Shown here: one piece after another, positions 1 through 24,296 of the stretch
Layout of the letters: every line of letters begins with the position of its first letter
Position numbering within the stretch: the first letter of the stretch is position 1
IMG/VR virus record: IMGVR_UViG_2778261537_000018
Location: 1-24,993 of that record
Strand: one strand, 5' to 3'
DNA from: a virus
Lineage: Duplodnaviria; Heunggongvirae; Uroviricota; Caudoviricetes
DNA: 24,993 nt
Notes under the pieces: model-generated
Databases searched by the model: none
Seen by the model: only the letters and a program-made list of their open reading frames with translations
What the model was told of the DNA's origin: nothing
Made by a program: the position numbers and the translations under genes

Positions 1-1719
1 ATGATTTTTAGGGATAGCTTGAGAGTATTACCTTATGGTCGAGTAGATAATGATTTCTTCCAGATAGAAGAAAGACGTTCATGGAATGCAGGGCGATATT
101 ATTGGTCTAATAGAAGGATTTTTGGTTATATTGGAATTACTCAATCCAGTAATAAAGAGCTGAAAGATAAGTCGGGGAGAGAGGGATTCATAAGAAACCA
201 GGCTGCAAGAGAACTGAAAACTATTATATCTAATTTGTTAACTGAACTTGCTGATAGATTTTTTGGTTCACGTTCTGATGACCGTAAAGAGCTTTTAGAA
301 CAAGTTAAGCGTGAAAAAGAGTTAAGAAAATCTGCTCAACAACAAGCTCGAAAATCAACACAAAAAAGTTTTTCAGAAGCTTTGAAGAATCAGACACCAG
401 TTCTTGATGCTTCCTTGGAGGCTGTTAAAAGGCTGAAAACTAAGCTTGATAAAACTGATGGTTCGTTAGATTTAAACTATCTTAAAATTATAGACAGTGA
501 TCTTACAAACTTAGATGCGTTGCGCAGTGAAATTAAAACGCCTATCAAACCTCCAAAACTTGGAATGTATGAAGAGAAATATAGAGACTACAGAGATAAA
601 TTTAATGAGTTCTCTGCGTATATTCTACAAATGAAGTTAGCAATTAATAAACTTGATTCTGAATTAAATAAACTTGAGCCTTCATTGTCAGCGAAAAATC
701 ACCTTGAAAAAAATCAAGGTATTATTAATTCTAAACTAACTAAGTTTAATAACACGATAGAGGAGAAGATACATTCTCTTTTAAAAAAATGGGCCGATGA
801 AATAAAGGTTGATCGAAGTGATTATTATGCTAAAACTATATCAGTTGTTGATTCAATAGATAATGATTCACAAATTGAAAATGTGTTTAATTTGCTCGAT
901 AGTTTATATGTTGAGTCAGTTGATACCCTAATTTTCAAATATCAATCAATAATAAAAGGTCTCGATAGATTATTTGAAGGTATAAACTTAGATTCAGCAT
1001 TCTCATTATCTGAAGAAGAACGCTCATATTTTGAAGAAAAAGCTAAAAGTTTAAACGCGCTTGCACAGTTAGGTATTAGTGTTGAGATAATATCTCATGA
1101 ACTTGAAGAAATGGATTCTATGGTAACCAGAGGACTAAACTCTCTTCCTACTTCTGTAAAAGAACACCCTGGTTTTTCATTGGCGTTAAATGCTCACAGA
1201 TCGCTTACTCAACAAATACGTTTCTTATCACCTTTGAAAATATCAGGTTATCAATCCAGGCAGAGAATAACTGGAAAAAATATCATGGATTATGTCCTGA
1301 AGTTCTTTGGGGAGCGTTTCGAACGGCAACGAATAACTATTGAATTTAGTGAAGAGTTTAAGCAAATCGCAATAACAGATATACCATCAAGGATCTATCC
1401 TGTTTTTACTAATATTATCAACAATGCAATGTATTGGGTCAGTCTGTCAAATAATAGGCTCATAAAGATTGGTTTTGTGAATTCTTTGGTTATCATAGCA
1501 AATTCTGGTCCGGCAATTGATACCGATGATATCCCGCGACTATTTGAACTATTTTATAGCAAAAGAGCAAATGGACATGGGGTAGGTCTGTATCTATGTC
1601 GAGAAAACCTTGCTGTTGCACATCATAAAATATGGTATTCAGAACCTGATGAAGGCGATAACTATTTAATAAAAGATGGCGCTAATTTTGTGATCCAGTT
1701 CAATGGAGTGGAGTTCTAA
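1..1719 (+). CDS. Cytoplasmic histidine-kinase-like protein: coiled-coil N-terminal half, HisKA-like H-box, C-terminal HATPase_c (GHKL) domain
   Basis: ATG at 1, stop TAA 1717-1719. H-box-like IISHELEEM about 100 aa upstream of N-box NIINNAMYW; degenerate G1 box NSGPAID, F-box LFELF, G2 box GHGVGL. N-terminal half is K/E/L-rich (coiled-coil-like) with no obvious hydrophobic TM segment. Both window ends coincide with start codons, so the gene is probably complete. Confidence 0.6.
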   Translation: MIFRDSLRVLPYGRVDNDFFQIEERRSWNAGRYYWSNRRIFGYIGITQSSNKELKDKSGREGFIRNQAARELKTIISNLLTELADRFFGSRSDDRKELLEQVKREKELRKSAQQQARKSTQKSFSEALKNQTPVLDASLEAVKRLKTKLDKTDGSLDLNYLKIIDSDLTNLDALRSEIKTPIKPPKLGMYEEKYRDYRDKFNEFSAYILQMKLAINKLDSELNKLEPSLSAKNHLEKNQGIINSKLTKFNNTIEEKIHSLLKKWADEIKVDRSDYYAKTISVVDSIDNDSQIENVFNLLDSLYVESVDTLIFKYQSIIKGLDRLFEGINLDSAFSLSEEERSYFEEKAKSLNALAQLGISVEIISHELEEMDSMVTRGLNSLPTSVKEHPGFSLALNAHRSLTQQIRFLSPLKISGYQSRQRITGKNIMDYVLKFFGERFERQRITIEFSEEFKQIAITDIPSRIYPVFTNIINNAMYWVSLSNNRLIKIGFVNSLVIIANSGPAIDTDDIPRLFELFYSKRANGHGVGLYLCRENLAVAHHKIWYSEPDEGDNYLIKDGANFVIQFNGVEF

Positions 1720-1720
1720 T

Positions 1721-3469
1721 ATGACAGTGGCAAATTATAATTCTCTTGTCCAGAAAACTTTCTGCGAAAATGCAATTCGTTCCGTTGTCATGATTGATGA
1801 CGATTTTCTGACGTATTCTGAATCAATCAGGGCGTTGAATAACGAAGTTGATTTAGACTACAACAAAATTGACTCATCTAAACGAGCCGCTACTCTTGAG
1901 AGCTTTTTTCAATCTAAAAATATGATTTGTGATGTTGACAATGGTTCTGTTAATTTCGATGTGGATCGGATTAGAAAATCAGATCTTATTATTGTAGATT
2001 ATCATCTTGATAATAATGCACCTGATAAAACACTTAAACTATTACAAGATTTGAAAGACTCCGATCATTTAAATATGATTGTAATATATACTAGAGAGAA
2101 TTTAGAAACGGTTTGGATGCAGATATCATCGACTCTCAAAGGTGCTCTGGATATCAACAGCTTGATCATTGACTACGATAATGAAGATGTCCAAAGTTAT
2201 TGGGAAGACGTTGTATTACCGAACTTAAATGATAATGGTAATAAAGCTCTCACAAGAGATGAAACAATAGCCTATATTAAAGACAGTAAGCCTTGTAGAA
2301 GAATTAAAAGATTAATACATGATGATGCTGTGTTGGAGGATCAAAAGGATAAAAACTTCATTGCAAAAATGATTGCAGAATATGCTGTGTCTAGAAATGC
2401 AATTATTTCTAGCAACACATCTGGCTATGTCATTCGGGGTGATGAAAGCGGAGTAAAATGGATTCAATGTGGTAATATCTTTGTCTCCCTATTTCATAAG
2501 GTTCAAGATGATCATGAAAACGATGGAGATAGGATTTGGCAAACTCTCAATGATTCTCTCATTGAATGGAAACCATCTTATTATCAGTTAATAAAATCTG
2601 AAATTCAGAATGCAATCGAAGCTGAGGCTTTATCTTTTGTAAATCATTTGGCTAACGATCATTACGGTCAAGCTGCGTGGTTAAATGAGATATTAAAATC
2701 AGACTCGCCTGATATTAGATGTAGAAATATTGACTTTGTATTTGGTAATTTATCAGAAGAGCTTTATCAAAGACTTAAAAATAATAATACGCTGGATGAA
2801 TTTATCAAAAGTGTTTTTGATAGCTATTCAAATGAATACGCTAACAGCGGAGTTGCTGCATTGCTCCAATATTGCTCTTCAAAAATGGATCTGCCATCAA
2901 ATAATGATACTTATCACGAAATGTATCATGCTTTAAATATGAATTTGTCTTCAAAGAATTTTGAAGATGGTCATATTTCTACTGGCACTATTTTCTTTGA
3001 TACAGAGTCGAACAAATGGTATTTATGTGTGTCTGCGGCATGTGATTTGGTTCCTACTCAGGGTAACGACCCTCACCATGTAAGATTAAGTCCGCACAGG
3101 CTCATTAAAGTTCTGGAGCTTTTTAACGCCAGTCAGAGTAAAGCATTGCCATTTGCTGAACATTCGAAATATATATATGTAATGCATAAAAATCAAAGAA
3201 AATATCTCTCTATTTTCGAAGGGGATAAAACGCTTCCTGTTGTTGATTATATGGTGGTGTTGAATCATGGAACAACAGTTGATGGCGAAGAAAAAAATAT
3301 TATTTCTGCCGTGTTTTTAAGTAATATGGATGGCAACGTGCAAAATGTTCCTGTCCGACTCAAACTTAAATCTCAACTGAGAACTGGTTATGCAGAAAGA
3401 TATCAGGCTATAGCGTCTCAGTATAGCTCAAGGATTGGTGTGGATTATGTATCAATGATGCTACCATAA
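1721..3469 (+). CDS. Receiver (REC) domain protein with large uncharacterised C-terminal domain
   Basis: ATG 1721 preceded by GGAG at 1709-1712, immediately after the upstream stop (operon-like). N-terminal about 120 aa show REC hallmarks: VVMIDDD (acidic pair), DLIIVDYHLD (phospho-acceptor Asp position), MIVIYT (conserved Thr), then Lys. The remaining about 450 aa have no motif I recognise. ORF track start at 1703 overlaps the upstream gene; 1721 preferred. Confidence 0.6.
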   Translation: MTVANYNSLVQKTFCENAIRSVVMIDDDFLTYSESIRALNNEVDLDYNKIDSSKRAATLESFFQSKNMICDVDNGSVNFDVDRIRKSDLIIVDYHLDNNAPDKTLKLLQDLKDSDHLNMIVIYTRENLETVWMQISSTLKGALDINSLIIDYDNEDVQSYWEDVVLPNLNDNGNKALTRDETIAYIKDSKPCRRIKRLIHDDAVLEDQKDKNFIAKMIAEYAVSRNAIISSNTSGYVIRGDESGVKWIQCGNIFVSLFHKVQDDHENDGDRIWQTLNDSLIEWKPSYYQLIKSEIQNAIEAEALSFVNHLANDHYGQAAWLNEILKSDSPDIRCRNIDFVFGNLSEELYQRLKNNNTLDEFIKSVFDSYSNEYANSGVAALLQYCSSKMDLPSNNDTYHEMYHALNMNLSSKNFEDGHISTGTIFFDTESNKWYLCVSAACDLVPTQGNDPHHVRLSPHRLIKVLELFNASQSKALPFAEHSKYIYVMHKNQRKYLSIFEGDKTLPVVDYMVVLNHGTTVDGEEKNIISAVFLSNMDGNVQNVPVRLKLKSQLRTGYAERYQAIASQYSSRIGVDYVSMMLP

Positions 3470-3540
3470 TTATTATATTTTAGGCGTGGTGATTTTTTTT
3501 CGCCATGCCTATTTTATATTTATCATCACAATGATGTTGT

Positions 3541-3957
3541 TTATTTTTGTTTAAGTCTTCTAAGCTTCATGCATTCTAATGAGAATAATAATAGAGTTGT
3601 GCTGTATATAAAGCCAGAGTTAGTTAATAACTTTAAATTTAATGCTTCAGGATTTTCACTGAGAAAGTGAAAGGCATAAACTAAGTATACAGCTAAAGTA
3701 GCCGTTCCAATTGTTGGTCCAATATCGCCTTGATCATGAGGTTCAAGGTTTACATTGAACTTGAAGATTAGCCATTCAAATCCCCAAGTAAAAAAAACAA
3801 CTAATATCATGGCTGCGAATAATTTCGCGATGTTATCTGCTGATGGATTCATCAGAACAGATTGTTTCTGAAAAAATTCACAAAGTGAGAGTCCGAAAAA
3901 AATAAAAAAAAGTGGTCTGGAACTAAATTTTTCAAAAACTTTGAATAGGGTTTCCAT
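3541..3957 (-). CDS. Small hydrophobic protein (about 4 predicted TM segments), function unknown
   Basis: 138-aa ORF 38 bp downstream of the P4-type int on the same strand; hydrophobic stretches FFIFFGLSL, AAMILVVFFTWGF, ATLAVYLVYAF, FIYSTTLLLF; weak SD (GAAGGT) upstream of ATG at 3957. Confidence 0.4.
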   Translation of the reverse strand: METLFKVFEKFSSRPLFFIFFGLSLCEFFQKQSVLMNPSADNIAKLFAAMILVVFFTWGFEWLIFKFNVNLEPHDQGDIGPTIGTATLAVYLVYAFHFLSENPEALNLKLLTNSGFIYSTTLLLFSLECMKLRRLKQK

Positions 3958-3995: not shown

Positions 3996-5225
3996 TTAGG
4001 CTACCAGAGCATTTGATCTTTGAGCTTGAACGTAATCACTCCACCATTGCATCAAACTCTGTCGCTCTATCAGATATTCTGCACGATTGTATGCTGCGAT
4101 AATTTCATCTTTTTTCGAGTGGGCAAGCGCTGCCTCAAGAACTTCAGCTCTGAATTTACCAGACTCCTCTGCCGCTGTTCGTGCAATAGAACGCATACCG
4201 TGAGCTACAAGCTCGCCTCCGAACCCCATTCGGATGATAGCTGCGTTGGCTGTTTGTTCATGCATATGATTAAGAGGCGCTTTTATGCTGGGGAAAACCC
4301 ATTCTCTATGCCCACTTATTGATTTCATTAATTCAAGGATGCGCAAAGCTTCTTTACTCAAAGGAACTTTGTGAAGCTTTTTCATTTTCATGAAATCAGC
4401 AGGAATGTTCCAAATGCTGTTGGTTGTATCAATATCAGACCACCTTGCGCGAACGGCTTCACCCGGACGAACCCATGTCAACAATTGCCATTCAATTAGC
4501 ATACGTGTTTCCAACCGGATTGACGCATTCGTCAAAGATTCCATAAACCTTGGCAATTCGCTTGGGGGAAGGGCAGGCATATTTTGCTTTTTTGGTTTAC
4601 TGAATCTTTGACCAAGGTTGTCAGCCGGGTTGAACTCAATAAGTTCTTCAGTAGCTGCCCACCGGAAGATTTCATTCAGACGTGAAATGATACGGCGTAG
4701 AGTTTCCAATACGCCTCGTTGCTCAATAGGATCAAGGTGTTGTTTTAAGAGCTTAGGTCGGATCTCATTGATAGGGACATTACCCAGACCGGGAAAGACA
4801 TTTCTCTCTAAGCTGCGCCAGATGTCTGCTGCATGGTCTTGTGAGATACCTGATGTCTTTACCTTCTCATCTAACCATTTCCGCGCTACGGCTTGGAGAG
4901 TGTGCTCAGTAGCACTCTTTAATGCCTTCGCCTTATCGTTGTTATGGATTTGGGGATCAACACCATTTGCCAGAAAGGAGAGATATTCATCACGTAAGGC
5001 TCTGGCTCTTGCAAGGGTAAGGTGAGGATATGTCCCAAGGCTCATTTTGGTTCTTTTCTTGCTCACTGGTACTGCATACCTGAAATACCAATTTTTCTTG
5101 CCTCCTTTCGCCAAAGGAGCGATTCGTAGAATCAGACCATCACCGTCAAACAAGTTGATTTCTTTATCGGCTGGCTTGGTGCTTTTGATTTCAGTGTCAG
5201 TGAGCTTCTTAGCGATTTTTGCCAT
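3996..5225 (-). CDS. int: P4-type (CP4-57 IntA-like) tyrosine integrase
   Basis: N-terminus MAKIAKKLTDTEIKSTKP... with the arm-binding (DUF4102-like) signature of P4-family integrases; C-terminal catalytic region HGMRSIARTAAEE...AHS...YNRAEY. Start taken at the internal ATG (5223-5225) rather than the ORF-track start 5267. Sits next to the ssrA-derived 45-bp repeat, as intA does next to ssrA in E. coli K-12. Confidence 0.85.
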   Translation of the reverse strand: MAKIAKKLTDTEIKSTKPADKEINLFDGDGLILRIAPLAKGGKKNWYFRYAVPVSKKRTKMSLGTYPHLTLARARALRDEYLSFLANGVDPQIHNNDKAKALKSATEHTLQAVARKWLDEKVKTSGISQDHAADIWRSLERNVFPGLGNVPINEIRPKLLKQHLDPIEQRGVLETLRRIISRLNEIFRWAATEELIEFNPADNLGQRFSKPKKQNMPALPPSELPRFMESLTNASIRLETRMLIEWQLLTWVRPGEAVRARWSDIDTTNSIWNIPADFMKMKKLHKVPLSKEALRILELMKSISGHREWVFPSIKAPLNHMHEQTANAAIIRMGFGGELVAHGMRSIARTAAEESGKFRAEVLEAALAHSKKDEIIAAYNRAEYLIERQSLMQWWSDYVQAQRSNALVA

Positions 5226-5390
5226 TTTGGGACCCTCGGTTTTTGGACCCTTCTTAGTGGGTCCCATTCAGGGTGCCATAACTCGTAGTTCTCAGCAATT
5301 CTCACTGGACGACAATAGACGTAAAAAAGCCCGCAGAGCTTGTGCTGTGTGGGCTTAGTAGACTTCATTGAACTTCAAACAACTAAAAAG

Positions 5391-5435
5391 TGGTGGAGCT
5401 GGCGGGAGTTGAACCCGCGTCCGAAATTCCTACAT
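5391..5435. repeat. 45-bp direct repeat identical to the 3' end of ssrA (att site between tandem elements)
   Basis: tggtggagctggcgggagttgaacccgcgtccgaaattcctacat is identical at 5391-5435 and 23934-23978 (the 3' end of the intact tmRNA gene); sequences diverge immediately beyond on both sides. Confidence 0.85.
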
Positions 5436-5527
5436 ACTATTATTAATGGTTGAGATGCAATAATTTATCAATATTATCATTGATTTAGTGTTTTGGCGTA
5501 TTAGCAAGTGTTATGCATTTTTACTCT

Positions 5528-5550
5528 TCTGTCGCCATTTTGCCGCCACT
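5528..5550. repeat. 23-bp direct repeat, left copy (tctgtcgccattttgccgccact)
   Basis: Exact 23-mer also present at 23865-23887, same orientation; each copy lies just inside the 45-bp ssrA repeats. Confidence 0.8.
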
Positions 5551-5643
5551 TATACTAATGCAATAGAATATCTACCTACGATAATTTATACTGGAAGTGA
5601 TGAAAAAATAAAAAAATATCAATACTTTTCGATGTGGGGATAT

Positions 5644-7386
5644 ATGAAAACACAGAAATTCGTAAGTGAACTTTTTTTAGAAAATGGGCAGTTTATTCTA
5701 GTTGGCTTAACTGGAAGAACTGGTTCTGGTTGTACTACAGCAGCAACTATTTTAGAAAGTAATGAGACAGTATTTCCCGATGTGGATAAATTAACTGATT
5801 TTTATAATGGTTTAGATTTACAGCGTTATAAGATAGTTAAGGATTTCACTGAGAATCATTGGGAGGCATTTTACTCAATCAAGGTTAGTGACTTGCTATC
5901 AGTTTATTTGTTAGCAATGTCACATACTGAACTTTCACACTTCATCACGTCGTCAACTAAAGATAGCATTGATGAAGATAAATTAAACAAGATACTTAAT
6001 GAAGGAGCATTTTCAAAAACACAACTTAGAAAAATAAGGACGGATATATTAAAAGCACTTATTGATCATAGTCAAGAATTAGATCTCGATAATCTAGATG
6101 TATCTAACATAAGAAAAACATTGCATTTGGTTAGGTTTTTCACTAATAACTTCAAAAAAGAACTTAATGAGATAAATACAGGTCTTTATGTATCAACTTA
6201 TCAGGCCGCTGGAAAATCTGTTAGACGGCTTGGTGAAGTAAAAACAAACTATGAAACAGAAGAATTTGATCCAAAATCGGTATTTCATTTGCCTGAAACT
6301 ATTAATAGGGTCATTAAGCTAATTAGAAAAAGCCAAGGTGGTAAGGCATTAGTAGTTATTGATGCTATACGTAATCCATATGAAGCTAAATTCTTTAAAG
6401 ATAGATATGCTGCATTCCATTTGGTATCAATTAATGCTCCTGATGAGCATAGGAAAAAATATTTACAGAAGCTACACAAGTTTTCATCTGAGCGCATTAA
6501 ACACATTGATGATATTGAATCAGGAAAAGGAGATAAAGACAATCAATATAAACATTTAACGAACCCTAATGTAACGAAATGCATAGAAATTTCGGATATA
6601 CATCTTTATAATCCTAAAAATGAGTTTGATAACAATAACATACTTAAAGCACAACTTGCATGGTATATCGCTCTAATGAAGCATCCTGGATTGATCACTC
6701 CTACAGCGATGGAGCGAGTTATGCAGGTCGCATATACTGTTAAATTAAACTCTGGATGTATATCGAGGCAGGTCGGTGCCGTTGTTACAGATAATGATAA
6801 TTCAATTAAATCAGTTGGTTGGAATGATGTAGCTAAAGGGCAGATACCATGTTCAATGAGATCACTCGATGGGTTGATCAATGATTTTGATTCGAAAGTA
6901 TATAGCTCATATGAGCGAAATGATGCTCTTTTTAGAAAGAAAGCTAAAAGTAATTTAATAAAGTTTAGAGCGATTGAATCAAGCTCTGAAATTTTTAAAG
7001 GACGTAATTTGTCATATTGCTTCAAGGATATTCATAATAGTCTTAATGATGATAAAAAAGGGAATCAGGTCCATACCAGAGCTTTACATGCTGAAGAAAA
7101 TGCCTTTTTACAATTATCTAAATATGGTGGCGTTGGTGTCCAAGGTGGTAAGTTGTATACTACAGCAAGTCCTTGTGAACTTTGTGCAAAAAAAGCATAT
7201 CAATTAGAGGTCGCTGAAATAATTTTCATTGATCCTTATCCGGGTATTGCACAAGATCATATTATTAATATAGGTAATAATCCACCTAAATTAATTCAAT
7301 TTAGAGGGGCAATTGGTAAATCATATCATCGATTATATGAACAAATTATTCCTATGAAAGATGAGTTGGATTATTTATCAATGTAA
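5644..7386 (+). CDS. P-loop kinase-like domain fused to cytidine/deoxycytidylate deaminase domain (AvcD/DcdV-like anti-phage dCTP deaminase architecture)
   Basis: N-terminal Walker-A-like GLTGRTGSGCTT; C-terminal zinc-deaminase signature HAEENAF...SPCELCAKK (H-x-E and PC-x-x-C). Start placed at ATG 5644 (GGGGA 3-7 nt upstream); in-frame alternatives at 5632 and 5488. AT-rich relative to phage backbone. Stop 7384-7386 is 9 bp from the convergent int stop. Confidence 0.65.
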   Translation: MKTQKFVSELFLENGQFILVGLTGRTGSGCTTAATILESNETVFPDVDKLTDFYNGLDLQRYKIVKDFTENHWEAFYSIKVSDLLSVYLLAMSHTELSHFITSSTKDSIDEDKLNKILNEGAFSKTQLRKIRTDILKALIDHSQELDLDNLDVSNIRKTLHLVRFFTNNFKKELNEINTGLYVSTYQAAGKSVRRLGEVKTNYETEEFDPKSVFHLPETINRVIKLIRKSQGGKALVVIDAIRNPYEAKFFKDRYAAFHLVSINAPDEHRKKYLQKLHKFSSERIKHIDDIESGKGDKDNQYKHLTNPNVTKCIEISDIHLYNPKNEFDNNNILKAQLAWYIALMKHPGLITPTAMERVMQVAYTVKLNSGCISRQVGAVVTDNDNSIKSVGWNDVAKGQIPCSMRSLDGLINDFDSKVYSSYERNDALFRKKAKSNLIKFRAIESSSEIFKGRNLSYCFKDIHNSLNDDKKGNQVHTRALHAEENAFLQLSKYGGVGVQGGKLYTTASPCELCAKKAYQLEVAEIIFIDPYPGIAQDHIINIGNNPPKLIQFRGAIGKSYHRLYEQIIPMKDELDYLSM

Positions 7387-11238: not shown

Positions 11239-12092
11239 GCACCATCCTGAAATGGGCGGGAAATAAAACCGCCATTATGTCCGAACTGAAAAAACATCTT
11301 CCTGCTGGCCCGCGACTGGTTGAACCTTTCGCGGGTTCCTGTGCTGTGATGATGGAGACGGATTACCCCAGCTATCTTGTTGCGGATATTAATCCTGATT
11401 TAATCAACCTCTATAAAAAGATTGTCGCTGATTGCGAAGCGTTTATATCTCGTGCCAGAGCTTTATTTGAGGAAGCAAACAGGGATGTGGCTTATTACAA
11501 CATAAGGCAGGAGTTTAATTACTCCACTGAAATTACTGATTTCATGAAAGCGGTATATTTCCTGTATCTCAATCGTCATGGTTACCGTGGGTTATGTCGC
11601 TATAACAAGAGCGGGCATTTCAACATTCCGTACGGTAATTATAAAAATCCGTATTTCCCTGAAAAAGAAATTCGCGCATTTGCAGAGAAAGCCCAGCGGG
11701 CAACGTTTATCTGCGCAAGCTTTGATGAAACGCTGGCGATGCTGCAGGTGGGGGATGTGGTGTATTGCGATCCGCCGTATGACGGTACGTTTTCCGGCTA
11801 TCACACTGATGGTTTCACTGAAGATGACCAGTATCACCTGGCATCCGTTCTTGAACATCGGTCATCAGAAGGACATCCGGTCATTGTTTCTAACAGTGAC
11901 ACATCCCTGATCCGTTCGCTGTATCGCAATTTTACTCACCACTACATCAAGGCAAAACGCAGCATCGGTGTGGCAGCTGGTGAGAGTAAATCTGCAACAG
12001 AAATCATCGCTGTTTCCGGGCCGCGCTGCTGGGTGGGATTTGATCCTTCGCGTGGCGTGGATAGTTCAGCCGTGTACGGAGTACGTGCATGA
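11235..12092 (+). CDS. dam: DNA adenine methyltransferase (Dam-like, orphan N6-A MTase)
   Basis: Motif I-like EPFAGSCAV and catalytic motif DPPY ([12 protein letters not shown]); N-terminus [11 protein letters not shown]. Start at ATG 11235 (ORF-track start 11175 is an upstream extension). No adjacent restriction endonuclease gene. Confidence 0.8.
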
Positions 12093-14509
12093 GTCATGCC
12101 GATATGAACAACTGCTGCGGCTTTAACGAGGCTGCCGCAGCGTTCTCATGGAACAGCCCGAAAAAGGCCATTAACCCTTATCTGGACCCGGCGGAAGTTG
12201 CGCCGGTTTCTGCGCTTTCAAACCTGATCACTCTGTACGCTGCCGATAACGAGCAGGAACAACTGCGCCGCGAGGCACTGAGTGATCAGGTCTGGGAGCG
12301 TTATTTTTTTAATGAATCACGTGATCCTGTCCAGCGCGAAATGGAGCAGGATAAGCTCATTAGCCGGGCAAAGCTGGCGCATGAGCAGCAGCGTTTTAAT
12401 CCGGATATGGTCATTCTGGCGGACGTCAACGCCCAGCCTTCCCATATCAGCAAGCCGCTGATGCAACGTATTGAATACTTTAGCAGCCTGGGCAGGCCAA
12501 AGGCTTATTCCCGCTATTTACGTGAGACGATTAAGCCATGTCTGGAACGACTGGAGCATGTACGCGACAGCCAGCTATCTGCATCTTTTCGTTTTATGGC
12601 AAGCCATGAAGGGCTGGACGGCCTGCTTATCCTGCCTGAAATGAGTCAGGATCAGGTGAAGCGCCTGTCTACCCTTGTCGCTGCGCATATGAGCATGTGC
12701 CTTGATGCCGCTTGTGGTGATTTGTATGCCACCGATGACGTTAAGCCAGAAGAAATCCGCAAAACATGGGAAAAGGTGGCAGCGGAAACCCTGCGTCTGG
12801 ATGTTATTCCGCCTGCGTTTGAGCAACTCCGTCGGAAAAGAAACCGCCGTAAACCCGTGCCCTATGAACTCATTCCGGGTTCGCTGGCGCGTATGTTGTG
12901 TGCCGACTGGTGGTATCGGAAATTATGGAAGATGCGTTGCGAATGGCGGGAAGAGCAGTTGCGTGCTGTCTGCCTGGTCAGCAAAAAAGCATCTCCCTAT
13001 GTCAGCTATGAAGCCGTGATGCATAAACGTGAGCAGCGCCGCAAGTCACTGGAGTTTTTCCGTTCTCATGAACTGGTGAACGAAGAGGGCGACACGCTGG
13101 ATATGGAAGACGTGGTAAACGCCAGCAGCAGCAACCCGGCGCACCGCCGCAATGAGATGATGGCCTGTGTTAAAGGTCTGGAGCTTATCGCGGAAATGCG
13201 TGGTGATTGCGCCGTTTTCTACACCATTACCTGTCCGTCACGTTTCCATTCCACGCTCAATAACGGCAGACCAAACCCAACCTGGACAAATGCGACGGTA
13301 AGACAAAGCAGCGATTATCTGGTCGGCATGTTTGCTGCATTTCGTAAGGCGATGCACAAAGCCGGGTTGCGCTGGTATGGCGTGCGGGTGGCTGAGCCGC
13401 ATCATGACGGTACGGTTCACTGGCACCTGTTGTGTTTCATGCGCAAAAAAGACCGCCGTGCCATTACTGCATTGTTGCGTAAGTTTGCCATCCGTGAAGA
13501 CCGCGAGGAACTGGGTAATAACACTGGTCCACGCTTTAAATCTGAGCTGATAAACCCGCGCAAAGGAACACCGACAAGCTACATCGCGAAATACATTAGT
13601 AAGAACATTGACGGGCGTGGTCTGGCTGGCGAGATCAGCAAGGAAACGGGTAAATCCCTGCGTGATAACGCTGAATACGTTAATGCCTGGGCGTCTCTGC
13701 ATCGTGTTCAGCAATTCCGCTTCTTTGGTATTCCGGGGCGTCAGGCTTACCGTGAACTGCGATTGCTGGCTGGTCAGGCGGCAAGGCAACAGGGCGACAA
13801 AAAAGCAGGTGCGCCGGTACTGGATAACCCGCGCCTTGATGCCATCCTGGCTGCTGCTGATGCTGGTTGTTTTGCCACTTACATCATGAAGCAGGGTGGC
13901 GTACTGGTTCCCCGCAAATATCACCTCATCAGAACTGCTTATGAAATTAACGAAGAGCCGACCGCCTATGGCGATCACGGCATTCGTATTTATGGCATCT
14001 GGTCACCCATTGCAGAGGGCAAGATCTGCACTCATGCAGTGAAGTGGAAAATGGTCCGTAAAGCCGTTGACGTTCAGGAGGCGGTAGCCGACCAGGGCGC
14101 TTGCGCCCCTTGGACTCGGACTCGTGGCAATAACTGTCCCCTTGCTGAAAATTTGAACCAACAAGGGAAAGACAAATCAGCTGATGGGGATACCAGAACG
14201 GATATCACCCGCATGGATGACAAGGAGTTGCACGATTACCTGCACAGTATGAGCAAAAAAGAACGCCGGGAACTGGCAGCAAGGTTACACCTGGTTAAAC
14301 CGAAACGGTGTAAAGACTACAAACAGCGAATTACAGACCATCAGCGACAGCAGCTCGTGTATGAGCTGAAGTCCAGAGGGTTTGATGGTAGCGAGAAAGA
14401 GGTCGATTTACTCCTTCGCGGCGGCAGTATTCCGTCAGGAGCAGGCCTGCGTATCTTCTATCGGAACCAGCGTTTGCAGGAAGATGATAAGTGGCGAAAC
14501 CTGTATTAA
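12089..14509 (+). CDS. Phage replication initiation endonuclease (P2 gpA / 186 RepA family, rolling-circle type)
   Basis: 806 aa; start overlaps the dam stop (ATGA); contains the conserved [11 protein letters not shown] region I associate with P2 A-type replication proteins; position matches P2/186 synteny. Confidence 0.8.
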
Positions 14510-15363: not shown

Positions 15364-17187
15364 TTGAAATGTGCACTATTCCCAGCATTGAGTTGTACCA
15401 GATGTCTTTATGGAGGGACTGTGGCTTTTGTAACTGATATTCGGCTTGAAGATAATGCTATTGCTGCACCTGCGACAGCACAGGTTATGGCTCAGAGGCT
15501 AGGATCTGTATTACGTAAGAGATATGAAGAATTCATCCATAAAAGAGAGTGTGCACCAGGCCAAGCAGACTATGATGTAAAAATGGCTAGCAGGGCTTTA
15601 GCCGCATTCACTATGTATCAGTTAGGATGTGTGGATGATAAGTATGCAGGGGAGTCTGTATGTGATAGTAGTGAAGATGGTGGTATAGATGGAATAGCAA
15701 TCAACCATAACGAAAAAATCGTTGTTGTTGTTCAATCAAAATTTCACCAATCGGGAAACGGCACTTGGACAAGAGCCGATTTTATGTGTTTTAAGGATGC
15801 TTGTGAGAAGCTACAAAGTGAAAGATACGAATTATTTGATTCCATATTGCAAAATAAAAGCGGGGAAATAAGTGCGGCTTTAAGTAGTTTTGAATACAAG
15901 TTCATCTTTGCGATGGCGCATACAGGTAAAAAAGGTGCTGCAGAGGAAATATTAAATGATATGCGGGAATGGCAATATCAATTAAACGCTGCAGCTTTTA
16001 CACCTGAGGATGAGCCTAAAGAGAACTGGGGATTTCAGGTTCATTTAATATCCTCTGAAGATATGATGCATTGGTTACAGAATGGCTCTCGAAATCAAAT
16101 TGATCTTAACAGGGTTGAAATTGAGCGTTTTGGATTTTTGAATGAACCATATCAAGCTTTTTACGGGGCTATTAGTGGTGATCAAGTTGCAGAATGGTGG
16201 GAAGAGCATGGTGCTCGATTATTTACAAAAAACATAAGGAATATGCTTGGTAAAACAGAAGTGAATGAGGAAATAAAAAAGACAGCTATAGATAATCCTG
16301 ATATGTTTTGGTTTTATAATAATGGGATTACTGTACTGGTTAAGGAAGTTGTTCCTCATAGACGAAACGCAGCTCCTAATATAGAGAGAGGGATTTTTGA
16401 TTTTCGTGATGTAAGTGTCATTAATGGTGCACAAACAGTCAGTAGTATTGGCGCATGTAAAGATGCGCTTGGTGAAAACATATATAGACTCAAAGTGCCA
16501 GCTAGATTCATTGTTATAGATGATGATACTGATAATTTAACTGCAAATGCAATTACAAAAGCTAACAATTTCCAAAATAGAGTATTGGGAAGAGATTTTG
16601 CATCGCAGCAGGCAGATCAACATAGATTGGCAAGGGAGTTAGTGCTTGAAGGATATCAATATCAGTTACTAAGAACAGATGAAGATCATTCACAGACAAA
16701 TACGAAAGTCATTGACTTGGATGAGGCGCTCAATGCACTCGCATGTTTAAGTAAAAATAATACGGTTGTATCGACACTAAAATCAAATCGCGGTAGGTTT
16801 TTTGAAAATTTTGAAGGCTCTCTATATAAAACTATTTTCAATCCAAGATTAAGTGGTTTAAAACTTATCAATACTGTTCTACATTTTAGAGTTATAGATA
16901 AGTTGATCGGTAAAACATTACTATCAGTAGATAAAACGACCCATAGTCGCAAGCATTTAATTATTACGCATGGTAATAGATACTATGCGTCTGTACTATT
17001 GAGCAACGTTTCTGGGATACATAATAGCTCAGAAATTCTTGTTCCAGATGAAAAAAATCTTTCCGAAGAATTAAGTGCATTAATTCAACGTGCTGAAGAG
17101 TACATTGAAGATAATTACCCGAATGCCTATCCGGCAAGATTTTTTGCAAATCCAACGAAAATACAAGAGTTATACGATAATGTTTAA
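15364..17187 (+). CDS. AIPR-like putative abortive-infection protein with N-terminal PD-(D/E)xK-like motif
   Basis: Long AT-rich ORF between repA and the portal gene (the P2 old/tin cargo position). N-terminal DGGIDGIAI...VVVVQSKF resembles a PD-(D/E)xK (Mrr-like) core; FWFYNNGITVLV and VINGAQT resemble AIPR-family motifs as I recall them. True start uncertain (in-frame TTG 15364, GTG 15421, ATG 15487). Confidence 0.5.
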   Translation: MKCALFPALSCTRCLYGGTVAFVTDIRLEDNAIAAPATAQVMAQRLGSVLRKRYEEFIHKRECAPGQADYDVKMASRALAAFTMYQLGCVDDKYAGESVCDSSEDGGIDGIAINHNEKIVVVVQSKFHQSGNGTWTRADFMCFKDACEKLQSERYELFDSILQNKSGEISAALSSFEYKFIFAMAHTGKKGAAEEILNDMREWQYQLNAAAFTPEDEPKENWGFQVHLISSEDMMHWLQNGSRNQIDLNRVEIERFGFLNEPYQAFYGAISGDQVAEWWEEHGARLFTKNIRNMLGKTEVNEEIKKTAIDNPDMFWFYNNGITVLVKEVVPHRRNAAPNIERGIFDFRDVSVINGAQTVSSIGACKDALGENIYRLKVPARFIVIDDDTDNLTANAITKANNFQNRVLGRDFASQQADQHRLARELVLEGYQYQLLRTDEDHSQTNTKVIDLDEALNALACLSKNNTVVSTLKSNRGRFFENFEGSLYKTIFNPRLSGLKLINTVLHFRVIDKLIGKTLLSVDKTTHSRKHLIITHGNRYYASVLLSNVSGIHNSSEILVPDEKNLSEELSALIQRAEEYIEDNYPNAYPARFFANPTKIQELYDNV

Positions 17188-17218: not shown

Positions 17219-18244
17219 TTAGAAATGGTATTCTTGGAATTCAATAACACCTTCTTTTATGAAATTGTTTATTTCTTGTAATCTTTTTTGCAATGGCAAT
17301 AATTCATTACGTACAAATACTTTACTCGCCTTCTCTACATCTCCAAAGCCCCCGACATTATTAGGCATTATCCCCATCATTTGTGGCGGCACACGATGCG
17401 CCGCCATCATGTCGTCCCGGCTCACGTTCTTGATATTCAGGAACTCATCCTTCGCCGCCACTTCTGACAACGGGATAATCTGAAGCCCGTCCTTTTTACC
17501 GTTAGGCGAGTACATAAACAGGTTACGGAAGTTACCAGGACCTTTGGCGCTTTTCATCGCATTGCGGAGGTTGTTCACATCCTCCTGGTTCTGCGCTGCA
17601 TCGGTCATGTACATGATGAAGCCTGCATGACTGCCGTTAATGTAATACTTGCGGCGGAACAGCGTGGCGGACTCGTTGAGCAAAGCGGATGGGATGGCAG
17701 AAAGATAGCCGGGCAGGCCGTAGATCTCCTGATTAATATCCGGTTCCATCAGATGAAAAATGCTGCCTTTCGTGAACTGATACGGCTGGGTTGTCATACC
17801 GTATTGCACAAACCAGTAGGTATCCAGGTCTAACCCGCGTCGGGTGTATTTTGCCAGAGCAGGCTCAAGGGCGATAACTTCACCGAAGCGGTTCGTGCGT
17901 TTCTCCAGGTAGGCGTTACCAAATACCAGATAGTCCTGCACAAAACGTGAAAAATCCTGCTGGCTGAGCAGCGGGTGAGGGATGTAGGTACTGGTCAGAA
18001 TGTTGCATTTCACTGCAATCGGTGAACTGTGATGCACGGCGGCGCGGAAGGTGCGCGCCAGCCCGTCAAAGCTTACTGGCGGCTCATACCAGCGATCTGT
18101 CTGTACGCATTCCACATAGTCCAGCAGTTCGCGGCGGTCCAGAACAGGAACGGGATCACCGAAGCTGAATGCTTCGGCTGAAGTCTGGCTTTTATGCTGG
18201 ATCTGGTTCGTCGACGCAGCGCGGTTCTTCTTACTCTTTCCCAT
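17219..18244 (-). CDS. Phage portal protein (P2 gpQ family)
   Basis: About 341 aa, same size as P2 Q; directly downstream of and overlapping the terminase large subunit gene by 1 nt on the same strand; position matches the P2 Q-P arrangement. Confidence 0.8.
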   Translation of the reverse strand: MGKSKKNRAASTNQIQHKSQTSAEAFSFGDPVPVLDRRELLDYVECVQTDRWYEPPVSFDGLARTFRAAVHHSSPIAVKCNILTSTYIPHPLLSQQDFSRFVQDYLVFGNAYLEKRTNRFGEVIALEPALAKYTRRGLDLDTYWFVQYGMTTQPYQFTKGSIFHLMEPDINQEIYGLPGYLSAIPSALLNESATLFRRKYYINGSHAGFIMYMTDAAQNQEDVNNLRNAMKSAKGPGNFRNLFMYSPNGKKDGLQIIPLSEVAAKDEFLNIKNVSRDDMMAAHRVPPQMMGIMPNNVGGFGDVEKASKVFVRNELLPLQKRLQEINNFIKEGVIEFQEYHF

Positions 18245-20010
18245 CAAAAAATCTCCACAATATTGCTGGTATTGGCGGACTCGCCCTGCAGCGGTTCGTT
18301 AAACAGTGCGTGCATTGTTGCCCAGGCCAGATCCGCATGGCTGGCTTCTTCGCTGCGGCTGGCTTCATAGGTCGGGCGGTTGCCGCTGGCGGTGGTGGCG
18401 CGACGGATTGCCATAAATGACTGCGCTATGTCGGTGTGTCCGGCGTCAAACTCCAGACGGCGGTGACTGATAATGTCGTAGGCCTTGAGTACCAGGGCGT
18501 TTTTAACATTGGGGTTGTAGACAAACTCCCGGACGGCAGGAAAAAACGCTTTCACGTTCTCGTAAACCCCGTGACCGACGCCGGTTGAGTCGATACCGAT
18601 ATATGTCACGTTGTACTGTTCAGTCAGTTTTTTGATGGCGTCAGCCTGGGCGCGGAAGTCCATCCCGCGCCACTGGTGACGCTCAAGAATGCGGAACTTA
18701 CCACCCGGCACGGCTGGCGGAGCCACTACCACGCATCCGGCACTGTCGCCGTTCTGCGTACCTTTTGCCGGGTCATAACCGATCCACACTTCGCGCCAGC
18801 CAAACGGGCGCAGGGCCAGTGCATGAAAGTCGGTCCAGACTTCCCAGCTGTCCACCATGCACGCCTGCAGTTCGCTGAGCGGGAACACGGACGCGAGATC
18901 GTCCACGAACTCGCACATCAGCAGGTTCTGGTATTCGTCCGGGCTGTACTCCATGCGCAGCTGGTCGAGGTCGAACAGGTTACAGCCGCCGCGCACCGCA
19001 TCTTCCACGGTGACTATCTGGCGGTATTGCCCGTCTGCGCACAGCAGGCCGGGGGCCAGATTGCTGTGGGACAGGTCGATGTCCACCTTGTCAGCTTTGT
19101 TGCGTCCACGGTTGAACAGCGCACCGGACCAGAACGGATAAGCACTGTGGGTCAGGCTGGATGGCGTGGAAAAATAGGTTTGTCGCCATTTCTTGTGAAT
19201 AGCCATCCCGGAAGCCACTTTGCGCAGCTCCTGGAATTTCGGTATCCAGAAATATTCATCCAGATACAGGTTGCCGTGATAACTCTGGGCCGTGCGGGCA
19301 TTGGTGCCGAGGAAGTAAAGCGTGGCTCCGTTAGGAAGCACCATCGGATCGCCTTTTAGCTCCACCTCGACTTCTTTGGCGAAGTCGATGATGTATTGTT
19401 TAAAGACGTGGGCCTGAGCCTTACTGGCAGAAAGGAAAATCTGGTTACGTCCGGTAAGCAGGGCGTCAATCAGGGCTTCACGGGCAAAATAGAAGGTCGC
19501 GCCGATCTGGCGAGACTTCAGCAGGTTGCGGATACGGTTGGTTTTTCCGGCTTCCCACCAGTGGCGCTGGTAGTTGAACATGGAGGAATGGAAGATTTCT
19601 TCCAGCTTCTCAATCTGCTCATCGGTGAAAACATTCTTTTCCGGCTGACGGCGTGGGCCTTTATTGCGGTTGGCGACGTTAGGGTTTAAGTCGGCTTCGT
19701 TGCCGCCATTGTTAAACTTGCCGATCCGCGCGTGGCGCTCAGACTGGCGCGCCAGCAGGTCAATCTCTTTGAAATCTTTCCCTTCTTTGTGCTCCTTCAT
19801 GATGAGCTGGCAGTAGCGTGCGGCGGTGGTGAGCTGCATCTGATCCAGCGGCCCATAGTCACCCCACTTGTCGCGTTTTTTCCAGCTGTGAACGGTTGCA
19901 ACTTTCTCGCCCAGCATTTCAGCAATGCGGGCTACGCGGTATCCCTGAAAGTACAGCAGCATGGCCTGCCGACGGGGATCGAGATCTGCGGGTGTCAGTG
20001 TGGTGTTCAT
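18244..20010 (-). CDS. Terminase large (ATPase) subunit (P2 gpP family)
   Basis: 588 aa, the size of P2 P; divergent from the scaffold gene as in P2 (Q-P leftward, O-N-M-L rightward). Confidence 0.8.
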   Translation of the reverse strand: MNTTLTPADLDPRRQAMLLYFQGYRVARIAEMLGEKVATVHSWKKRDKWGDYGPLDQMQLTTAARYCQLIMKEHKEGKDFKEIDLLARQSERHARIGKFNNGGNEADLNPNVANRNKGPRRQPEKNVFTDEQIEKLEEIFHSSMFNYQRHWWEAGKTNRIRNLLKSRQIGATFYFAREALIDALLTGRNQIFLSASKAQAHVFKQYIIDFAKEVEVELKGDPMVLPNGATLYFLGTNARTAQSYHGNLYLDEYFWIPKFQELRKVASGMAIHKKWRQTYFSTPSSLTHSAYPFWSGALFNRGRNKADKVDIDLSHSNLAPGLLCADGQYRQIVTVEDAVRGGCNLFDLDQLRMEYSPDEYQNLLMCEFVDDLASVFPLSELQACMVDSWEVWTDFHALALRPFGWREVWIGYDPAKGTQNGDSAGCVVVAPPAVPGGKFRILERHQWRGMDFRAQADAIKKLTEQYNVTYIGIDSTGVGHGVYENVKAFFPAVREFVYNPNVKNALVLKAYDIISHRRLEFDAGHTDIAQSFMAIRRATTASGNRPTYEASRSEEASHADLAWATMHALFNEPLQGESANTSNIVEIF

Positions 20011-23933: not shown

Positions 23934-24296
23934 TGGTGGAGCTGGCGGGAGTTGAACCCGCGTCCGAAATTCCTACATCCTCGGTACTACATGCTTAGTC
24001 AGTCTTTACATTCGCTTGCCAGCTGCGGACGGACACGCCACTAACAAACTAGCCTGATTAAGTTTTAACGCTTCAACCCCAGGCAGGGCTTCCACGCGAT
24101 CTCTTTTGGGTTTGACCTCTCTTGATCCCCGTCCTAAGAGCGGAGGCTAGGGAGAGAGGGCTCTAAGCAGGTTATTAAGCTGCTAAAGCGTAGTTTTCGT
24201 CGTTTGCGACTATTTTTTGCGGCTTTTTACGAGGCCAACCGCCCCTCGGCATGCACCTTGGGTTTCGCAAATCCCGTCGAATCCAGAATCAGCCCC
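23934..24296 (-). ncRNA. ssrA: tmRNA (SsrA), intact 363-nt gene
   Basis: Reverse complement reads GGGGCTGATTCTGGATTCGACGGGATTTGCG...TAAAAACTTAATCAGGCTAGTTTGTTAGTGG...GGGTTCAACTCCCGCCAGCTCCACCA, matching E. coli tmRNA as I recall it; lies immediately downstream of smpB on the same strand. Confidence 0.95.

Follow-up and report, generated by a model that had tools for sequence, protein, structure and literature searches.

A conserved module behind an atypical receiver domain as candidate phospho-gated effector of a methylase-linked three-gene cassette

Positions 1 to 24,993 of the IMG/VR virus record IMGVR_UViG_2778261537_000018 (Caudoviricetes), i.e. the whole stretch of 24,993 nucleotides that was analysed here and that is referred to as the window, begin with the remnant of a histidine-kinase-like (HK-like) gene (1..1719, + strand), which is followed, with an overlap of 17 nt, by a response-regulator-like (RR) gene. 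The latter, as defined by open reading frame (ORF) calling and RefSeq annotation, encodes 588 amino acids (aa; 1703..3469, +); RefSeq places its start at Met7 (position 1721, 582 aa) and labels the product 'response regulator receiver domain'. In the following, we describe the C-terminal part of this protein, a conserved module that belongs, together with the kinase-like partner and a C5 cytosine methylase, to a three-gene cassette found in many bacterial lineages, and that may act as the phospho-gated effector of this cassette.

The response-regulator-like protein and its C-terminal module

Full-length homologues of the 588-aa protein number in the hundreds, with identities down to about 21%. 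As judged from the ratio of non-synonymous to synonymous substitution rates (dN/dS) against an 86%-identical orthologue, the protein is under strong purifying selection, with values of 0.139 for the receiver and 0.05 for the C-terminal part as a whole, the latter being composed of a helical lobe (0.077) and a beta-rich lobe (0.031).

The N-terminal part is an atypical receiver domain (REC; aa 25-289, 1775..2569, +), an assignment that draws on Pfam PF19192, on invariant residues and on an AlphaFold2 (AF2) model. The Response_reg_2 (PF19192) match itself covers aa 25-181 (E=3.5e-31, 109.2 bits against a cut-off of 27). Conservation was assessed in an alignment of 101 diverse full-length members, which reaches down to 21% identity and contains nine invariant columns. 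Four of these are receiver residues, namely D32, the phospho-acceptor D99 (1997-1999), T130 (2090-2092) and K266 (2498-2500), and the second acidic residue of the D32/D33 pair (1796-1801), D33, is kept in 87% of the members. In the AF2 model of the full protein, which was built on 43 homologues (predicted local distance difference test score, pLDDT, 84.8; predicted template modelling score, pTM, 0.79), beta5 comprises aa 259-265 and is closed by K266, alpha5 comprises aa 274-289, and a helical insert of ~100 aa with a beta-hairpin (aa ~150-252; 2150..2458, +) is lodged between alpha4 and beta5. This insert is poorly conserved in the alignments.

Because K266 and the last helix follow the insert, the receiver runs to about residue 289, and the unassigned module is accordingly confined to aa 291-588 (window 2573-3466), that is, to ~300 residues. 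The initial annotation of this DNA, which had been made from the sequence alone, envisaged a large unclassifiable domain of about 450 residues beginning at position 2100; a C-terminal domain is indeed present, but its boundary had to be shifted, since position 2100 corresponds to residue 133 and thus lies within the receiver.

The module is composed of two lobes. According to the AF2 model and the alignment, the first (aa 291-416; 2573..2950, +) consists of six helices and features the invariant P291, the motif S-E-x-Q-N (aa 299-303) and the invariant N412 (2936-2938). The second (aa 417-588; 2951..3466, +), for which dN/dS served as an additional criterion, is rich in beta-strands, ends in a helix and conserves G428, C442, C447 (3041-3043), D448, the tripeptide Q558-L559-R560, R566, R577 (3431-3433), G579 and D581; it is the most constrained region of the protein. 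Invariant within the module among the 101 members are P291, N412, G428, C447 and R577, and at least 90% conservation is found for C442, A485, L559, R566, G579 and D581. Residue 448 is Asp in 79%, Asn in 11% and Glu in 7% of the members. By virtue of its conservation, Cys447 is clearly important. The net charge amounts to -9 for the (acidic) helical lobe and to +1 for the (neutral) beta lobe.

Modelled separately, aa 290-588 gave a pLDDT of 84.5 and a pTM of 0.79. A Foldseek comparison of the module with PDB and BFVD returned zero matches at E<=1e-3, with query-normalised TM-scores that were all <= about 0.2, and thus also no confident match to a known non-effector domain. The picture from sequence searches is much the same: Pfam, NCBIfam and PADLOC detected only Response_reg_2 in the 588-aa protein, PDB sequences were matched neither by a phmmer query nor by a profile of 22 C-terminal segments, and Pfam scans of 22 individual members (E<=10) brought up no convincing family in the module. 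The earlier statement that the C-terminal part carries no recognisable signature is hence borne out by all of these searches. Readings of the module as a PD-(D/E)xK, HNH, phospholipase D (PLD) or SRA/PUA domain were rejected for want of fold hits or because of ill-fitting motifs, and the same applies to helix-turn-helix (HTH) or winged HTH (wHTH), caspase/CHAT, sortase and protein tyrosine phosphatase (CX5R) readings.

With an E-value limit of 1e-3, an exhaustive hidden Markov model (HMM) search of 1.84 billion representative proteins yielded 605 clusters. Throughout the best 150 of these 605 clusters, the module is located at about aa 280-600 of ~580-640-aa proteins, or in fragments, and a profile restricted to the beta lobe retrieved only short gene fragments and no other architecture. 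Going by these best 150 clusters, the module has one architecture, in which it is always fused to a Response_reg_2 receiver.

The kinase-like partner and the three-gene cassette

The HK-like ORF that precedes the RR gene is the 3' remnant of a larger gene, recognised by Pfam as HEF_HK (PF19191, 26 bits against a cut-off of 24.1) and HATPase_c (PF02518, 44.9 bits). It opens with an internal Met, corresponds to aa 420-991 of an intact 991-aa protein and is 88% identical to this range of the homologue at locus L005. The remnant comprises a dimerization and histidine phosphotransfer domain (DHp; aa 356-414, 1066-1242, +) with the H-box His366 (1096-1098), a HATPase_c domain (aa 462-553, 1384-1659, +) and, likewise within 1..1719 (+), a partial S5/transducer region and a coiled coil. 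Its kinase motifs, i.e. the H-box His366-Glu367 and the N/G1/F/G2 boxes, are conserved. What is missing from the window is the N-terminal MORC-type GHKL ATPase (HATPase_c_3), which is present in 83% of the family members. In the intact HK-like protein, the GHKL motifs I-III, the S5/transducer motif, the coiled coil, the H-box His-Glu and the N/G1/F/G2 boxes are all conserved, and with GHKL, S5, coiled-coil, DHp and catalytic and ATP-binding (CA) domains assigned on this basis, no part of the protein is left over. As an aside, the only stretch of an intact HK-like protein to which the PADLOC model 'REase_II' (PDLC03419) aligns is that of the GHKL motifs (L005 5034-5440, E=1.6e-9), so that some catalogued type II restriction enzymes share this GHKL ATPase head.

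The genomic context was surveyed in 28 lineages, which were compiled from the contigs of six homologues and a genome-collection scan and include, for example, Erwinia, Citrobacter, Serratia, Acinetobacter, Pseudomonas, alphaproteobacteria and Acidobacteriaceae; neighbours were scored with HMMs built from the neighbours themselves, and shared families were sought by all-against-all clustering. A full-length HK-like gene (970-1013 aa; HATPase_c_3 + HEF_HK + HATPase_c) precedes the RR gene in all non-E. coli lineages with enough flank (24/24), and a C5 cytosine methylase is directly adjacent in the same 24/24 lineages, either upstream and co-directional or downstream. No fourth gene family (nuclease, antitoxin or other) turned out to be common across the 28 lineages by all-against-all clustering, the other neighbour clusters being antisense shadow ORFs within the HK and methylase genes, integrases and a 138-aa enterobacterial ORF. 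The cassette is a strict trio of a C5 DNA methylase, a MORC-type HK-like protein (~990 aa) and an RR-like protein, and intact trios are present in Citrobacter (e.g. C. amalonaticus S646, NZ_PQMB01000004), Serratia (e.g. S. nevei 9rpt1), Erwinia (e.g. Erwinia sp. OLTSP20) and Acinetobacter.

Within this trio, the identities of the RR proteins closely follow those of the HK-like proteins (Spearman 0.83) and hardly those of the methylases (0.26). Since methylase identity barely tracks RR identity, the methylase is an exchangeable part of the cassette, as expected if it supplies specificity, and it has been swapped between lineages independently of the HK and RR genes. For example, Acinetobacter and enterobacterial copies are 45% identical in RR and 60% in HK, whereas their methylases are only 32% identical and lie in opposite orientation. 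Overall, at least three divergent C5-methylase types in two orientations (loci L002-L036) have been exchanged several times; the Acinetobacter methylase is accompanied by a small HTH_3 (C-protein-like) gene, which was found only there. The carriers of the cassette, among them an ssrA island, an integrative and conjugative element with type IV secretion genes and a Tn7-like transposon with the cassette as cargo, are mobile or defence-rich elements.

The E. coli copy and its surroundings

The window is Escherichia coli DNA, as its positions 1-3500 recur in 574 of 5,426 complete E. coli genomes (562 at >=99% identity). In E. coli genomes, the end of an IS3 element is located ~120 nt upstream of window position 1, and the kinase frame is open back to this junction. 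The methylase is found neither in the window nor in any E. coli copy; an intact trio occurs in 0 of the 5,426 genomes, none of which has the methylase or the GHKL half. About 561 E. coli copies share one truncation point (the kinase remnant is also seen at L001 10687-12000), and because all E. coli copies begin at the same point, a single ancestral truncation event is indicated. An IS3-associated deletion took the methylase together with the first ~380-420 residues, i.e. the sensor half, of the kinase-like protein.

The RR gene itself has been affected in part of the population. A truncated 453-aa allele (P0009, window 1721-3079) ends at His459 and is devoid of most of the beta lobe; sequence databases hold 1,605 member sequences of this allele versus 1,966 of the full-length one. 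Additionally, one complete E. coli genome carries an IS1 within the RR gene. The commonness of the truncated allele and the IS1 insertion indicate that the decay of the E. coli copy is ongoing. The allele in the window is full length and has kept every invariant residue. The window copy is, then, a relic that consists of a kinase core and an intact but orphaned gene for the putative effector, which presumably can no longer be triggered. The label 'response regulator receiver domain', as it stands in about 10% of complete E. coli genomes, would accordingly hide a decayed defence relic and not a housekeeping regulator.

The module (aa 290-588) of a 5.6-kb contig that was binned as a 'Bacteroidales bacterium' metagenome-assembled genome (L012, DAIPZW010000118.1) is 100% identical to that of the E. 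coli relic; this contig carries the same truncated 572-aa HK and is probably a binning or contamination artefact.

Downstream of the RR gene, a terminator-like hairpin (12-bp stem followed by a T-run; 3481..3511, +) begins 12 nt 3' of the stop codon and likely marks the end of the operon. The cassette region has a G+C content of 32-35%, compared to roughly 50% for the genome. A hydrophobic ORF of 138 aa (3541..3957, -) is convergent with the RR gene; it is found beside the RR gene in the enterobacterial clade only (Erwinia, Citrobacter, Serratia, E. coli), gave no family match and is outside the family-wide core of the cassette. It is followed by the P4-type tyrosine integrase of the cassette-carrying ssrA island (3996..5267, -).

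A 48-nt copy of the 3' end of ssrA (tmRNA), which serves as att, is present at 5391-5438 and again at 23934-23981 (ssrA: 23934-24296, -), and these two copies bracket an 18.5-kb remnant of a P2-like prophage. It follows from these flanking copies that the P2-like element was inserted so as to separate ssrA from the older island with the HK remnant, the RR gene and the integrase; the islands are stacked at one att site. The P2-like element has two low-GC slots of its own. One, beside its integrase, is occupied by an anti-phage dCTP deaminase (5488-7386, +; PADLOC dCTPase 2.5e-140; NCBIfam NF041025, 415 bits), and the second (35-38% G+C), between replication gene A (12089-14509) and the portal gene (17219-18247), by an AIPR (abortive-infection-type) protein of 607 aa (15364-17187, +; Pfam PF10592, 7e-35).

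Readings of the module and comparison with known systems

What does the module do? By elimination and context, its best reading is that of a phospho-gated effector of a restriction-modification-like (R-M-like) cassette, to which we assign a probability of about 50%. The trio has no other conserved gene and the HK-like protein is accounted for, so that the RR tail is the only conserved cassette domain left to carry the output, and because no nuclease gene is conserved alongside the trio, this tail is the likely effector. Also in favour are the confinement of the module to this receiver, the strong constraint on its beta lobe, the co-evolution of RR and HK, the mobile or defence-rich carriers and the validated Ambrosia system, which shows that a cassette of methylase, HATPase kinase and REC protein can protect against phage and that the phospho-acceptor Asp is needed for this. 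The initial annotation had already suggested an executing part that is gated by phosphorylation within a defence pair. Such gating fits the context (receiver residues and kinase boxes are kept, the two genes overlap by the 17 nt mentioned above, and a methylase is linked), but the supposed pair is in fact a triplet, and one that is broken in the window.

Under this reading, the cassette would provide R-M-like defence in which the restriction arm is switched by a His-Asp phosphorelay. The methylase would mark host DNA and supply sequence specificity, and the N-terminal GHKL-S5 ATPase of the kinase-like protein would sense unmodified DNA, possibly together with the methylase. Upon sensing, the C-terminal kinase domain would autophosphorylate the H-box His, and the phosphoryl group would move on from there to D99 of the receiver. 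The ensuing change at the alpha4-beta5-alpha5 face, which bears the insert of 100 aa, could then be relayed via P291 into the two-lobed module (aa 291-588), which would be released or assembled as the effector. We favour an attack on nucleic acid, with invader DNA as the preferred target, and a functional site that may be made up of the invariant Cys447, Asn412 and Arg577 together with Arg566 and Asp581. For the cassette in the window, the trigger would be lost, since methylase and GHKL sensor are both gone with the IS3-associated deletion.

Several observations weigh against this reading. For the module, whose activity is predicted, the searches retrieved none of the known folds of nucleases, hydrolases or nucleotide-binding proteins. 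Its lobes are acidic to neutral (-9 and +1), and only one or two acidic residues are well conserved, D448 being replaced by Asn in the 11% given above; neither feature is typical of a metal-dependent nuclease or of a DNA-binding protein. BREX and similar methylation-based systems function without a recognised nuclease, so that an 'effector' need not be an enzyme. PADLOC is without a model for the trio, and in the literature library searched, no experimental study of a C5-methylase/HK-like/RR trio was found. Moreover, the fact that the RR gene is intact in many E. coli after the loss of the methylase shows that it is harmless alone in this state. The joint loss of methylase and sensor, a deletion that arose naturally and left the gene for the putative effector behind, would be expected if the effector did harm only once triggered; one deletion may, however, also have had this outcome by chance.

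A more specific version of the effector reading can be put forward only tentatively. It would regard the module as a phospho-gated restriction effector of new fold, that is, a nuclease or nucleic-acid enzyme that uses Cys447, Arg577 and Asn412, and the trio as a distinct R-M class in which a MORC-like sensor reports unmodified DNA via a His-Asp relay to the arm that cuts or kills, with specificity coming from interchangeable methylases.

Among the alternatives, a non-catalytic role survives best, even though we consider it rather doubtful. The module would in this case be an adaptor or regulator that, when phosphorylated, binds the MORC-type ATPase, the methylase or DNA, and that tunes methylation or DNA compaction or acts as an unconventional transcription factor, as has been proposed for AbrC of the Ambrosia system (see below), whose REC protein is proposed to control transcription; restriction or silencing would then fall to the GHKL clamp or to host factors. 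Eukaryotic MORCs are known to clamp and compact DNA, the tight co-evolution of HK and RR is of the kind seen with interacting partners, and the searches brought to light neither a catalytic fold nor a classic active-site constellation. The acidic character of the module is at odds with this role, however, and the invariant N412, C447 and R577, along with the very low dN/dS of the beta lobe, suggest a precise functional site and not a loose interface. Furthermore, a methylase accompanied by regulators alone would leave the cassette without an executing part.

It is unlikely that the beta lobe is instead a divergent toxin of the MazF/Kid/CcdB type, which would cut RNA or poison gyrase upon phosphorylation and thereby cause growth arrest or abortive infection. 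By our own inspection, the order of the strands and the helix at the C-terminus are compatible with this fold, as is an invariant Gly that precedes strand one (T-G-T-I-F, cf. G-D-I-W in MazF). However, Foldseek gave no match in PDB or BFVD at E<=1e-3, hhalign put the probability at 0.1% when the family profile was compared with an alignment of MazF, Kid and CcdB, and Pfam PemK or CcdB matches were absent from the 22 members at E<=10, so that neither sequence nor profile similarity connects the two. The lobe is also considerably larger (~170 aa, compared to ~110 aa for the toxins), the catalytic Arg and Thr of MazF cannot be mapped, nor are catalytic residues identifiable, and there is no antitoxin-like partner gene or any conserved small neighbour across the lineages.

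Least probable by far is a Cys/His-dyad hydrolase (protease-like or caspase/CHAT-like) with its active site around Cys447, for which the initial annotation had speculated on a His/Cys-containing stretch that we could locate at aa 405-450: although Cys447 is present in 101/101 members and follows a hydrophobic strand (YLCVSAAC-D) in a manner superficially reminiscent of the catalytic Cys of clan CD peptidases, no His is conserved in the module (His405 7%, His409 60%, His424 49%) and the predicted fold is all-beta in the Cys447 region, so that the proposed dyad falls.

If the effector reading is true, the cassette represents a form of R-M-like immunity in which a MORC-type ATPase switches the restriction arm through a two-component phosphorelay. 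Bacterial relatives of MORC, epigenetic marking of self and His-Asp signalling would thus come together in a single compact cassette that is widely transferred, and the defence repertoire would gain a protein fold without a characterised relative. The cassette is also experimentally tractable, as it consists of three genes, intact copies are known, and D99, C447, R577, the H-box His and the GHKL Glu offer themselves as targets for point mutants.

As regards known systems, the receiver and kinase family has been described before, whereas there is no earlier description of the output module or of the closed three-gene architecture. The logic proposed here is the same as that of Detocs, where phosphate is transferred from a kinase-like sensor to a receiver that carries the defence-executing effector as a fusion. 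Unlike the trio, Detocs (DtcABC) employs a buffer receiver and an ATP nucleosidase effector of the purine nucleoside phosphorylase (PNP) type and has no methylase, and the PADLOC models for Detocs matched neither the RR protein nor the HK remnant nor the intact HK-like proteins. In contrast to classical type II R-M, the trio is devoid of a restriction endonuclease of known fold (PD-(D/E)xK, HNH, GIY-YIG, PLD or half-pipe).

In the prokaryotic MORC and paraMORC R-M systems (Iyer, Abhiman and Aravind 2008; PMC2292703), a GHKL-S5 ATPase and cytosine methylases are linked on mobile loci of R-M-like character. In those systems, the ATPase is accompanied by helicases and recognisable nucleases (restriction-endonuclease fold, HNH, Vsr), whereas in the trio it is fused to a histidine-kinase core and its partner is a receiver with an unassigned module. 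The Response_reg_2/HEF_HK pair, on which PF19192 and PF19191 are defined, was described on bioinformatic grounds by Bellieny-Rabelo, Pretorius and Moleleki (2021; PMC8011034), who reported 91.6% gene linkage, an enrichment of type II R-M genes, especially C5 methylases, and a paraMORC ancestry of the kinase, and who proposed a regulation of neighbouring R-M systems. That work defines only the receiver and DHp domains and contains nothing on the C-terminal module of ~300 aa. The window ORFs are members of this pair (receiver D/D/T/K; soluble kinase-like partner with HisKA-like DHp and HATPase_c); the subfamily considered here differs in being a closed methylase trio without a nuclease, and the window copy in addition lacks the HATPase_c_3 half and the methylase.

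The comparison with Ambrosia, a validated anti-phage defence of Pseudomonas in which mutation of the phospho-acceptor Asp abolishes defence (bioRxiv 10.1101/2025.09.30.679545), was made by gene description. Ambrosia comprises five genes, which encode an XRE regulator, an N6-adenine methylase, a HATPase kinase, a REC-wHTH protein said to act on transcription and an HNH type IV nuclease (10.1101/2025.09.30.679545), whereas the trio has three genes and a C5 methylase, and no HNH, XRE or wHTH is conserved in it. What both systems share is that a DNA methylase is combined with a sensor kinase of the HATPase type and with a REC protein.

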